From Eledone cirrhosa (Eukaryota): 64,000 nt of DNA. The position numbers and the translations under genes were made by a program. The DNA lies in NCBI GenBank assembly GCA_964016885.1, contig OZ024763.1:17546001-17610000 (forward strand), written 5' to 3'. Of the stretch, positions 3,791 to 63,135 are shown piece after piece; position 1 is the stretch's first letter, and every line of letters begins with the position of its first letter. The notes under the pieces were generated by a model. It was given only the letters and a program-made list of their open reading frames with translations, searched no databases and was not told the origin of the DNA.

Positions 3791-4310
3791 TACGATATTA
3801 ATAAATGGAAACTATATTTATAAAACCATATTTATTTCATTATACATATTTCAAGGATACCAAATTAAAATATAGTATGCCTTCATCAGACAAAATACAA
3901 TATATAAACAGTTTTATAAATAATTTTGACGTACCTTATTAAATGCAACCATTATTTTTGGAAGCTGTCTGGATAGTGAAATGTTTATATTATTTTATTA
4001 GTTATAGTGTTAAGCACAATTTGAAATATAAACATTTCACTATCCAGACAGCTTCCAAAAATAATGGTTGCATTTAATAGGGTACGTCAAAATTATTTAT
4101 AAAACTGTTATATATTGTATTTTGTCTGATGAAGGCATACCATATTTTAATTTGGTATCCCTGAAATATGTATAATGAAATAAATATGGTTTTATAAATA
4201 TAGTTTCCATTTGTTAATATCGTATATCTACTCCAAAAACTTGTTGAGTGCTTTTATATCAGTTATAAAATATTTACTTGTTGTATCCCAACAATTTTAA
4301 ATAGAACTTT
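3791..4310. mobile_element. Fold-back Penelope-type pseudo-LTR remnant: ~200-bp inverted arms (3791-3991 / 4025-4224) plus extension
   Basis: Near-perfect inverted repeat with a hammerhead motif in each arm. The left arm abuts (TA)n and the right arm continues TACTCC..GAGTGCT. Confidence 0.8.
4118..4182 (+). ncRNA. Minimal type I hammerhead ribozyme motif (mirror copy on - strand in the left arm)
   Basis: tattttgt CTGATGA aggcatacca..tggtatccct GAAA tatgta TA atgaaata; stems I and II pair. Confidence 0.75.
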
Positions 4311-4692
4311 TGCATATATATATATACATACACACATATATATATATATATATATAGAGAGAGAGAGAGAGAGAGAGAGAGAGAGAGAGAGAGAGAGAGA
4401 GAGATGCTTTGTATGGCTTTTGGAGGAAGGAGTGACCAGCAGTACGTTGTTCGGTATTATTATGAAAAGGTGTAGCAGAGAATCCCACGTGAACTAACAG
4501 CTTGGGAGGAAACTGCTTACCTCGAAGATTCATTCGCCATCGTTCTTGTCAACGCTCCGTTTACTTGGTATTTGTTGGTCTACAGTTAGATGAATGGCGC
4601 TCAAAGGGTTCATGTTTATTGGCAAGAAGTTTTTTGAATAATAAAAGACGGGTTAAAGCGACCTACAATGTATCCGTGTATATATATATATA

Positions 4693-4830
4693 TAGGCAAA
4701 AGTATGACCCCGACGGCAGAGCTCAAGCCGTCGGGGTCATACTTTTTCCTATTTCCCACTCTACTACCCTAAGTATTGAGTACTCTGGTGCGTTATGGTC
4801 CATCTGGTTCCTTACCACATTTCCTTTGTT
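4693..4830. mobile_element. Miniature fold-back insertion in (TA)n: ~25-bp stem hairpin plus extension
   Basis: taggcaaaagtatgaccccgacggc-agagctcaa-gccgtcggggtcatactttttccta, followed by ACTCT..attGAGTACT. Confidence 0.6.
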
Positions 4831-5012
4831 ATATATATATATATGTGTGTATGTATGTATGCATATATATATATGTGTGTGTGTGTATGTATGTATGTAT
4901 GTATATATATATATATATATATATATATATGTGTGTGTGTGTGTGTATATACATATATTTTTATGTGTATATTTATATATGTGTATATCTATATATGTGT
5001 ATATGTGTTTGT

Positions 5013-5338
5013 ATCATCATTTCATTTTTACGTCCGCTTTTCCCTGCTTGCAAGGGTGGGACGGGAACTGATTCTGGCCTAATTTCTACAGCTGGATGCC
5101 CTTCCTAACACCAACCTCATTTACAGTGAGTGCTGGGTGATTTTTATTCCATGTCCACTTTGCAGTGGAATGATAGGGACCGCAGTCCCTATCATCTCAT
5201 TTCTACAGCTGCGTAAACTGGAGCAATGTGAAATAAAGTGTCTTGCTCAAGGAAACAACACATCACCCGGTCTGAGAATTGAACTAACAACCTTTCGATT
5301 GCAAGGCCAATGCTCTAACCACTAAGCCATGTGCCTCC
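5013..5338 (-). mobile_element. SINE family A copy
   Basis: Same head, CORE and tail as 734-1110, with an internal deletion. Confidence 0.85.
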
Positions 5339-6006
5339 ATTATATACTTTATATACATTATATACATATATATATGTATATGTATATATGTGTGTGTGTG
5401 TGTGAATGTAACGAAGATAATACGTCAGCAATGACGTGTTCATCAGAATGTCGTTATGCAGACATACAGGCAGATATTATAAGGGCTCAACGGAGATCGA
5501 TAACCGAAAATTGAAAAATACAAGCTGCAGTTAATATCTTTAGACCGCAAGGAATATATAAATGCAAGTTGTAAGTTAATTGGAGTAGAAATGTGGAATT
5601 GTATACACTTTGCAAAAATGAGGACACACATAGACAACAGCAGTTTTATATATATATATATGTGTGTGTGTGTGTGTGTGTGTGTGTGTGTGTGTGTGTG
5701 TGTGTGTGTGTGTGTGTGTGTGTGTGTGTGTATATATGTGTGTGTGTGTATATATATATATGTGTATATATATATATATGTGTGTATATATATATATGTG
5801 TGTATATATATATATATATGTATATATATATATGTGTGTGTGTGTATATATATATATATATATATGTGGATATATATATATATATGTGTATATATATATA
5901 TGTATATATATATATATATATATGTATATATATAAATATATATATATGTATATATATAAATATATATATATATATGTGTATATATATATGTATATATATA
6001 TATATA

Positions 6007-6711
6007 TCATCATCATCATCATCATCACCGTTTTACGTCCGTTCTTCCACGCTAGCATGGGTTAGACGGGTTGTCCTGTTGTGGGCAGTGTCTGGTCGGC
6101 TGACCATGCCTTGCTCATACAGGAACTGATTTGGCTTGATTTCTACAGCTGGATGCCCTTCCTAACACCAACCTCATTTACAGTGAGTGCTGGGTGCTTT
6201 TTCTGTGGCGCCTACACGTCCACTTTACAGTGTGGGCTGGGTGCTTTTTTGCCGTGGCACCTCCACGACCACCTTGCGGTGGGGGGAGTGGGGGCATATT
6301 GTTTATATGCTTCAGCATGTACCCATGGGAGGTCGGGTACCCTGTATTACTGCGTGACGCCAGAAGTCACGGCCGTGTGTCATTGTCTTTGAGAGGTGTA
6401 GTTGGGTAAGGTCGGCTTTTATCACCTCATCCCAAGTCATCTTGGGTCTCCCCACTCCGCGGTTTCCATCAACTTCTAGTGCTCTGCACCTTTTTATGCA
6501 GCTGTCATCCTTCATACGCATCACATGTCCATACCAGCGTAACCGCCTCTCCTGCACGCAGCATTTGATTCCTCTTATGCTCAGTCTCTCTCTCAATTCC
6601 TTTATGCTTTGTCGTTCACGTATATTACTGTTACACATCCATCGGAGCATGCAGGCTTCGTTTCTCTCTAATCTATGTAAGTCTTCCACCTTCAGCGCCC
6701 AGGTCTCACTA
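6007..6711 (-). mobile_element. RTE-clade LINE 3' fragment with 3' UTR and (ATG)n tail
   Basis: Minus frame [46 protein letters not shown], homologous to the C-terminus of ORF 19809-21938. Confidence 0.9.
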
Positions 6712-61140: not shown

Positions 61141-61600
61141 TGTATATGTGTGTGTCTGTGTTTGTGTCACATTAACAACACTATATATATATATATATAT
61201 ATATATATGTGTGTGTATAACATTAGCAACACTATATATATATATATATGTGTGTGTGTGTGTGTATATATGTTTGTATAATATTAACAATGCTATATAT
61301 ATATATATATATATGTGTGTGTGTGTGTATAACATTTGCAACACTATATATGTGTGTGTATGTATATATATATATATATATATGTATGAGTATATAAAAT
61401 ACACCCACACATATATATATGTAGTATTGATGTTGATATATACACATATATACATATATATATACACATATATATATATATATATATATGTATGAGTATA
61501 TAAAATACACCCACACATATATATATGTAGTATTGATGTTGATATATACACATATATACATATATATATACACATATATATATATATATATATATATATA

Positions 61601-61808
61601 TACGTAGGTCCCGGGTTGAGTCGGGGATAACCACAGTAAGTAAGGTACTCAATACATGGCAGAGTAAAATTTTTTTATTTTATAGAAGGAGCTTCTACAG
61701 GACTAGTACTGTTTCATTCAGATGAAATCTTCAGGAAGCTTCCTGAAGATTTCATCTGAATGAAACAGTACTAGTCCTGTAGAAGCTCCTTCTATAAAAT
61801 AAAAAAAT
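61601..61808. mobile_element. Fold-back pseudo-LTR element: spacerless 140-bp palindrome (61669-61808) plus extension
   Basis: Centre ggaag|cttcc; hammerhead on each strand. The left extension reads TACTCT gccatgtatt GAGTAC on the - strand; the right arm ends in (TA)n. Confidence 0.85.
61738..61786 (+). ncRNA. Hammerhead ribozyme motif
   Basis: gcttc CTGAAGA t ttc atct gaa t GAAA cag tactagtc ctg TA gaagc. Confidence 0.8.
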
Positions 61809-62324
61809 ATATATATAGTGTTATACATACACGCACGCACACACACACACACACACATATATATATATATATATATATATATATATATATATATATATAC
61901 GTATCATTATTTTTTCATTGTACATTATTGATCTGTTCCTCAGACAGACTGATTTTTTTTTATGTCTTTTTGTATGGGGGGGGGGGGGATTTATATATGT
62001 ATGTGTGTGTGTATGTATATATGTGTGTGTGTGTGTGTGTGGATGTGTGTATGTATATATATGTGTGTGTGTGTGTGTGTATGGATGTATATATGTATGT
62101 GTGTGAGAGAAAGTGTATGTATGTCTGTGTGTATGTATGTATGTGAGCGAGAGAAAGCATATATATGTATGTCTGCGTGTATGGGTGTATATATGTATGT
62201 GTGTGTGTGTGTGTGTGAGAGAGAGAGAAAGCATATGTGTATATATATATATATATATATATATGGGTATATATATATATATATATATATATATATATAT
62301 ATATATATATATATATATATATAT

Positions 62325-62626
62325 GGAGGCACATGGCTTAGTGGTTAGAGCATTAGCCTTGCAATCGAAAGGTTGTGAGTTCAATTCTCAGACCGGGTGA
62401 TGTGTTGTTTCCTTGAGCAAGACACTTTATTTCACATTGCTCCAGTTTACTCAGCTGTAGAAATGAGATGAAGTGGACTGGGGTCCCTATCATTCCACTG
62501 CAAAAGTGGTCGTGGAGGTGCCACGGCAAAAAAGCACCCAGCACTCACTGTAAATGAGGTTGGTGTTAGGAAGGGCATCCAGCTGTAGAAATCAAGCAGG
62601 GAAAAGTGGACATAAAATGAAATGAA
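62325..62626 (+). mobile_element. SINE family A copy
   Basis: Same sequence as 37214-37537. Confidence 0.85.
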
Positions 62627-62631
62627 ATATA

Positions 62632-63135
62632 TATCAATAAAAATAACAGACCGGGTTCAGTATGAATCCGGTGATATCATCAGGTACTGGAATATAACAA
62701 AGGAATATGTAAAAAAGCATGGGTCCGAAAAATCAGAGACAGAGAGGACGACTGACCAACTAGCTGCCTTCACCTCGGCCAGTGATGGCGACTGGCCGAG
62801 GTGAAGGCAGCTAGTTGGTCAGCCGCTTTCTCTGTCTCTGGTTTCTCGGACCCATGCTTTTTTACATATTCCTTTGTTATATTCCAATACCTGATGATAT
62901 CACCGGATTCATATGGAACCCGGTCATTGAAATGATCATAGTATAATAAACCTTTCAAGGATTTACACCAGTCCAGCCTCCTGTTATTTTCATTGATAAT
63001 TAACTCCGTATTCGCACCACCAACTACACAAACGAAGATGGGTGAACTGCACTACGTTGAGTACTCTCCATAATATTACACCAACATTGACCATATGGAA
63101 TTCTATCCAGTGGTGAACCAACAAACCTAAAGAAT
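62632..63135. mobile_element. Fold-back pseudo-LTR element: ~135-bp arms around a 7-nt loop (62649-62925), outer arms 62632-62649 / 62981-62998, plus extension
   Basis: Inverted repeat with a ~55-bp deletion in the left arm; the right arm continues AACTCC..gttGAGTACT. Confidence 0.8.
62887..62944 (+). ncRNA. Minimal type I hammerhead ribozyme motif
   Basis: atac CTGATGA tatc accggattc atatg gaacccggt catt GAAA tgatca TA gtat. Confidence 0.8.

Follow-up and report, generated by a model that had tools for sequence, protein, structure and literature searches.

How Penelope-like elements (PLEs), the retroelement sisters of telomerase, pick their RNA template and the site at which copying starts is an open question, and the PLE tail has so far been an oddity known mainly from description, with a single study in vitro. 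The closest described systems are the Hydra clade of PLEs, defined by Craig et al. 2021 (PMC8557442, section 11), and PAc, a Poseidon element of Anolis carolinensis whose reverse transcriptase (RT) starts internally at two tail-bounding sites in vitro (Frangieh et al. 2024, PMC11167929). Here we describe a hairpin motif at the ends of PLE insertions in a stretch of 64,000 nucleotides (nt) from Eledone cirrhosa (contig OZ024763.1 of assembly GCA_964016885.1, positions 17,546,001 to 17,610,000; hereafter the window) and in related elements of other animals. On sequence comparison, the motif is a real, clade-wide cis element that matches the geometry of both insertion ends: tandem bulged hairpins stand in the leader of Hydra-clade elements, and each probably binds RT so that copying would start 2 to 7 nt upstream.

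Results

A motif beside the insertion ends of the window. The window is 36% GC and rich in microsatellites, and its inverted repeats are (TA)n-inserted ends of PLEs. An earlier note on this DNA was unaware that they are Hydra-clade PLE ends, for which a CxCX5C linker and a GIY-YIG endonuclease in element E6 and hammerhead ribozymes give the evidence; its statement that the families are otherwise unalignable holds, none aligning with another at E < 0.01. The motif that the note had placed at eight sites is whole at seven of them, and at the eighth (44576 to 44572, minus strand), where the note had seen no second half, the 5′ half runs directly into (CA)n. In all eight motif-bearing inverted pairs, as judged by eye, the short arm departs from the long arm 2 to 5 nt before the motif and then passes into (TA)n, which agrees with the note's placing of the motif near the arm boundary. 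The note's looser pattern matched the window 12 times against 2.7 expected (shuffle maximum, 8), and a refined pattern gave 6 matches versus 0.28 expected, a number reached in 0 of 100 shuffles (a spacer limit leaves out the site at 63003), and 7 versus 0.42 under block shuffling (0 of 200). The refined pattern was fitted to the window sites themselves, so the sets from outside the window are the real test.

A doubled motif in the leaders of other animals. Protein alignment retrieved 78 metagenome loci, among which 31 leaders spanning the hammerhead to the open reading frame (ORF) fell into 21 families at 75% identity. Under the strict pattern, 16 of these families had two motifs, 4 had one and 1 had none, giving 36 copies versus 0.19 in shuffles (at most 2 in any of 300); chance as the origin of the motif is thus rejected by the shuffles in both the window and the leaders. 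The exceptions are individual: L051 has U-A variants in both copies, the second copy is mismatched in L010 and contains unread bases in L035, the L014 leader is a truncated junction, and L023 carries a single copy. The layout is regular, with 40 to 53 nt from the hammerhead cut to copy 1, a further 57 to 83 nt to copy 2 and 19 to 55 nt from there to the ORF, and TAT or ATA occurs in the 10 nt before 27 of the 36 copies versus 30% elsewhere in the leaders. The stem is mostly GCTC/GAGC in other animals, such that the ACTC/GAGT that the earlier note gave as the core applies in the window and is a local variant of a wider form. These data suggest that the motif is spread across Hydra-clade PLEs of many aquatic animals.

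Several further observations concern these loci. Copy 2 appears as “LSTL” in the mis-extended N termini of predicted proteins P0008 and P0009. The motif of window element E6 (15894 to 15916, minus strand) has its entire inner hairpin in common with copy 2 of L002 (436 to 466, plus strand; 31 nt, 90%, E = 1e-4), although the best protein identity of E6 to any locus is 42%. In L002, L067, L085, L086 and L087, ends of different Hydra families stand tail to tail in one (TA)n run, clustered. The contigs of loci L079 to L087, which are animal Hydra-clade PLEs, are assigned to bacterial genome bins; host contamination is the most likely reason.

Both classes of insertion end lie just upstream of a motif copy. 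The 78 metagenome 3′ regions yielded 15 usable ends (a reference at ≥94% identity, no stop at a contig end and no tandem run-on), and 10 of the 15 lie 1 to 7 nt before a motif (2 at copy 1 and 8 at copy 2); under uniform placement of the 15 ends, P is 1e-7 to 6e-9, with three of the 15 coming from one family. A later set comprised nine loci, host DNA in bacterial bins, with 22 hammerhead matches, and all nine of the ends with a continuing reference for mapping lie 3 to 6 nt before a copy (7 at copy 1 and 2 at copy 2). In one insertion of L086 the two classes meet, one arm ending 5 nt before copy 1 and the other 3 nt before copy 2, and the head-to-head pairs of this set include four that join a short and a long arm. 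Three matches of other hammerhead-bearing families in the later-set loci had no motif. The earlier note's proposal of a cis signal at the 3′ boundary of the inserted copy is borne out by covariation (see below) and by positional enrichment in two outside sets, and what it missed is the second copy at the long end. With ends at both copies, the PLE tail here, of ∼65 to 135 nt, extends from motif 1 to motif 2.

Reads on E6 (restriction site-associated DNA sequencing, probable duplicates) end at 15925 (275 reads), 15928 (196) and 15837 (1214); another class at 15938 (134 reads) belongs to a sister subfamily, whose contig has the motif at equal spacing. Past the E6 long end, only (TA)n follows among the loose ends listed, and there are at least 171 further loose ends. 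E6 also excludes, by its geometry, a short end made by fold-back synthesis stalled at the hairpin: the short end belongs to its 2.9-kb ORF body, a stretch ninefold longer than the other arm (the 326-nt long arm), and thus arose from a start of its own. The distance from the hammerhead was rejected as a ruler, with 46 to 70 nt from core to motif in the window versus 2 to 5 nt from end to motif.

Shape and covariation of the motif. In the motif, R-C-U-C pairs with G-A-G-Y, followed by a 2-nt bulge, a Y-R pair, a variable inner hairpin and an unpaired N-C-U-N-U; the bulge begins with U in 88 of 89 copies, and the spacer inside the motif varies from 5 to ∼50 nt. The earlier note had seen that ACTC and GAGT can pair, which stands as a 4-bp stem, and had missed the bulge and a fifth, covarying pair. 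When only the outer stem is demanded, this fifth pair is C-G in 60 copies, U-A in 26, U-G in 1, C-A in 0 and other in 2 (n = 89); the position pairs in register in 88 of 89 copies, against 2 to 23 when slid, and it has switched at least nine times on the RT tree (53 scored rows). MAFFT failed to align the variable-length hairpins by structure, so pairs were counted by script; one equal-length set of 17 copies was also counted, in which changes on both sides occur at three pairs (18 cells versus 4.1 shuffled, 0 of 500). For the first pair, most loci have G-C, the window has A-U, and L050 and L051 have U-A; in L080 the third pair is swapped. Covariation is found in two outside sets. Stem pair probability exceeds 0.5 in 30 of 36 leader copies, and whole-tail folding energies are unremarkable (z of 0.2 to −2.1).

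Two other descriptions of the motif were rejected: a fixed-spacing DNA palindrome, as the spacer varies, and identity with hammerhead stem III, as the motif is a separate element without a hammerhead core. Stem III of many Hydra families reads ACTC-N-GAGT in the parts of PMC8557442 File S2 available to us and in many of our loci, the same letters as the window motif stem. Rfam 15 gave no match over the motif at the gathering score (best overlap, S-element, 22 bits versus 47, E = 4.9), and the 150 of 287 matches listed were microsatellite and palindrome noise.

Discussion

Each hairpin probably positions RT. In the mechanism that we propose, the hairpin would fold in the sense RNA and RT would dock on it, while nicked (TA)n DNA would anneal over a few bases to the AU-rich tract upstream of the hairpin and prime there. 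A start at copy 2 would take copy 1 along as the tail and a start at copy 1 would not, and priming from both DNA strands would give head-to-head pairs, usually of a short arm and a long one. The long end is fixed by copy 2 although inserted copies never contain copy 2, which would therefore act on the template. Of the roles that the earlier note had listed, recognition by RT fits best; endonuclease recognition and RNA processing are less probable, and a double-stranded promoter fits poorly because the spacer ranges so widely and the stem changes in pairs.

Several points weigh against this reading. The case for the role of the motif is correlation throughout. Outside the window, 6 of 25 ends are not in the 1- to 7-nt zone: L004 and L034 end 11 to 12 nt upstream of the motif, the ends of L009 and L016 fall within the hammerhead, that of L023 lies 32 nt beyond the start of its single motif, and the 3′ copy of L080 (a tenth end, mapped by eye) halts ∼33 nt before copy 1. 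One head-to-head pair, in L086, joins two short arms, and copy 2 was seen for no window family. Of six window tails that were folded, three formed the stem in the register given above, one formed it in a shifted register and two did not form it. Only four independent pairs on well-supported branches were available for the fifth position, all concordant (P = 0.125). G-U versus A-C counts (10:8 and 4:3) did not identify the folding strand, and hairpin energy was slightly better for antisense in 47 of 89 copies versus sense in 29. The PAc start site, in the portions of PMC11167929 available, has no target homology and lies inside the ORF, unlike the situation here.

These strand tests do not favor sense RNA, and they bear on an alternative in which the hairpin acts in DNA or antisense, the endonuclease or RT recognizing donor DNA, cDNA or an antisense transcript and cutting or resolving alongside. 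There is precedent in the available portions of three papers: the tail of the Drosophila virilis element is required for endonuclease recognition of plasmid DNA (cited in PMC11167929), Craig et al. (PMC8557442) credit the tail to endonuclease resolution, and an antisense template has been proposed (PMC3846280). However, copy 2 sets the long end though absent from the inserted copy and so cannot act in that cDNA, a fixed double-stranded site is incompatible with spacers of 5 to ∼50 nt and with paired changes, and PAc initiates on sense RNA in vitro (PMC11167929, as far as available), and we regard action in DNA or antisense as unlikely.

Equal geometry is also predicted if the hairpin guides cleavage of the RNA at a point a few bases 5′ of itself, whether by self-cleavage, a host nuclease or an element protein, with RT starting at the new 3′ ends, and the conserved unpaired bulge and N-C-U-N-U bases could be catalytic or nuclease contacts. 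Yet the motif matches no ribozyme family of Rfam 15, the ends scatter over 2 to 7 nt and track TA microhomology, and the PAc insertion product is independent of the RNA 3′ end and of hammerhead cleavage (PMC11167929, in the parts available), which makes a directed cut less probable still. Least probable is a role in leader translation or packaging (cap-independent start after hammerhead cleavage, or autorepression) with ends adjoining through coincident AU-rich tracts, which draws on the nearness of copy 2 to the start codon, on upstream ATGs in 19 of 21 leaders and on the ribozyme-linked translation starts reported for RNA viruses (PMC13725137), but must contend with ends that cluster beside motifs although TAT or ATA is present in 30% of other leader windows, with a motif-to-end distance that is tight where motif-to-ATG distance is loose, and with ORF-less stubs of unrelated families that retain the motif.

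Within the preferred reading of RT docking, we offer a tentative extension, which we hold to be possible and rather doubtful: the two hairpins may form a two-seat dock, each holding one RT-endonuclease subunit on one RNA, with subunits that prime opposite (TA)n strands and build the short-plus-long insertion in one step, and the hairpin with its upstream AU tract may be a portable, ∼30-nt, telomerase-RNA-like module for positioning the template. A dimer was predicted for PAc by Frangieh et al. (PMC11167929, in the part available); a homodimer prediction for residues 1 to 470 of our protein P0027 gave no answer (score, 0.17) and is not used as evidence.

Elements of the window

The coordinates of PLE insertions, motifs and other features are given in Table 1. 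Judged from its sequence, E6 is a Hydra-clade PLE, with RT, CxCX5C linker and a GIY-YIG domain with CxxC and CxH. Alignment with its relatives shows the CxxC and CxH, flanking conserved E and N residues and no CCHH; there are 103 protein relatives, full-length members are ∼700 amino acids long, and the closest named matches are from Argonauta hians and Octopus sinensis (40 to 46% identity). The relatives carry N-terminal RWK and DKT motifs, E6 itself being 5′ truncated. A Pfam search with the truncated E6 ORF gave no match, tblastn found no ORF remnant beyond E6 within the window, and the viral contigs searched gave no relative. Seven other pairs are putatively assigned to the Hydra clade via motif, hammerhead and target. 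Type I hammerhead cores with stems were found by pattern search in E1, E6, E9 and E10 and are decayed or lost in E2, E3, E5 and E8; Rfam covariance models did not call the E6 hammerhead and called that of L078 below the gathering score. E5 and E6 have both ends in common, and E9 and the copy at 22388 share the long end; the latter copy begins within the motif 5′ strand, as though copying from the long start had halted at copy 1.

The pair at 25370 to 25757 is probably from another PLE clade; two short sequence terms from it were unmatched in the available part of Craig's archive. Two copies of another non-LTR retrotransposon family, which we take to be RTE-like, face apart, and the 61- and 107-bp array units look like pieces of neighboring retroelements.

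Table 1. Coordinates of PLE insertions, motif copies and other features in the window
Feature	Position	Strand	Description
Pair E1	3793-4313		Short arm left, tailed long arm right; hammerhead cores 3849-3889(-), 4126-4166(+)
Motif copy 1 of E1	4230-4254	+	2 nt beyond short-arm end; seen in minimum-energy fold
Pair E2	4695-4829		Fold-back, truncated below hammerhead
Motif of E2	4758-4786	+	Fifth pair U-A version; 5 nt beyond short-arm end
Retrotransposon remnant	6326-6709		Presumably RTE-like
Pair E3	7721-8044		Decayed hammerhead core near 7947-7995(+)
Motif of E3	7809-7765	-	Long inner hairpin; 4 nt beyond short-arm end; absent from minimum-energy fold
Tandem array	10244-11535		∼72 bp
Single short-ended copy, E9 family	14794-14870	+	Hammerhead core 14812-14834; halts before motif
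Pair E5	15205-15382		Family and both ends as in E6
Motif of E5	15286-15257	-	Complete
E6	15838-19050		5′-truncated Hydra-clade PLE, inverted 5′ arm; arms 15925-16163 and 18812-19050, identical across 239 nt; tail 15838-15924; hammerhead cores 15979-16025(-), 18950-18996(+)
Motif of E6	15920-15891	-	4 nt beyond short end
E6 ORF	16116-17711	+	RT C-terminal half, CxCX5C linker, GIY-YIG endonuclease with CxxC and CxH
Retrotransposon ORF	19809-22070	-	Presumably RTE-like
Tail-only insertion, E9 family	22388-22448	+	Long end as E9; 5′ truncation inside motif
Retrotransposon ORF	22979-25165	+	Presumably RTE-like
Asymmetric inverted pair	25370-25757		∼60-nt extension; no motif, no clean hammerhead
Tandem array	27820-29107		∼61 bp
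Lone hammerhead-like core	29513-29541		GC-rich stem II; unlinked to inverted pair or motif
Tandem array	29955-30969		∼72 bp
Tandem array	33626-35207		∼73 bp
Pair E8	44560-44800		Motif 5′ half only
Tandem array	51211-55112		∼51 bp
Tandem array	55461-57475		∼107 bp
Pair E9	61603-61807		Fold-back; hammerhead cores 61712-61734(-), 61743-61765(+)
Motif of E9	61665-61642	-	3 nt beyond short-arm end; absent from minimum-energy fold
Pair E10	62634-63133		Hammerhead core 62891-62932(+); short arm internally deleted
Motif of E10	63003-63067	+	50-nt inner arm; 4 nt beyond short-arm end

Implications and comparison with known systems

A covarying, doubled motif at a fixed offset to both end classes leads to exact, testable mutations. 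The motif predicts element boundaries and non-autonomous partners, and it can serve to mark the clade of stubs that have no ORF. Should the hairpin position RT, whatever RNA lies upstream of it could end up copied into (TA)n, with relevance to gene capture by PLEs and to the design of RT tools.

The window elements resemble the Hydra clade as described in the available parts of PMC8557442 in domain order, linker, CxxC/CxH, hammerhead, (TA)n target, inverted 5′ copy and one-sided tail, with tails longer than the published 30 to 40 nt. Those parts do not mention the motif and, as noted above, explain the tail by endonuclease resolution, and the motif is visible in the consensi there of Hydra-2_Amil, Hydra-1_Ajap (twice) and Hydra-2_Ajap, with variants in others. 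A search of the available portion of Craig's archive with five exact 9-mers, in which line breaks and variants can hide matches, gave seven matches, four in six Hydra consensi and three interior to Naiad or Chlamys sequences. The minimal type I hammerheads (Cervera and de la Peña 2014, PMC4209133, in the part available) are located in the same leader, at the distance upstream of copy 1 given above. The motif is apparently undescribed: no description was found in the full-text literature available, most subscription journals and Repbase Reports lying outside its coverage.

PAc is alike in having internal starts whose spacing equals the tail, AT-rich targets and an upstream hammerhead, and it differs in AC-rich stem-loop start sites in the ORF (+111 to +118) and a 30- to 40-nt tail (PMC11167929, in the portions available). 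Those portions describe no PAc motif that is conserved, covarying or duplicated, and by eye the template as printed there has no motif copy near the initiation site, whereas the motif here is non-coding and doubled. Unlike in PAc, the Hydra motif lies upstream of the ATG, and the AU-rich region where copying would start matches (TA)n. The doubling and the tie to the tail would thus be new, and an RNA structure that positions RT would belong to a known kind of system. Hepatitis B virus epsilon and the template-flanking elements of telomerase RNA are bulged or template-adjacent RNA structures that load RT and fix the start of synthesis. The hairpins described here would work like them, although no sequence relation is expected. 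In epsilon, the bulge itself is copied and a protein serves as primer, whereas the hairpins described here would have the start outside the stem and a DNA primer.

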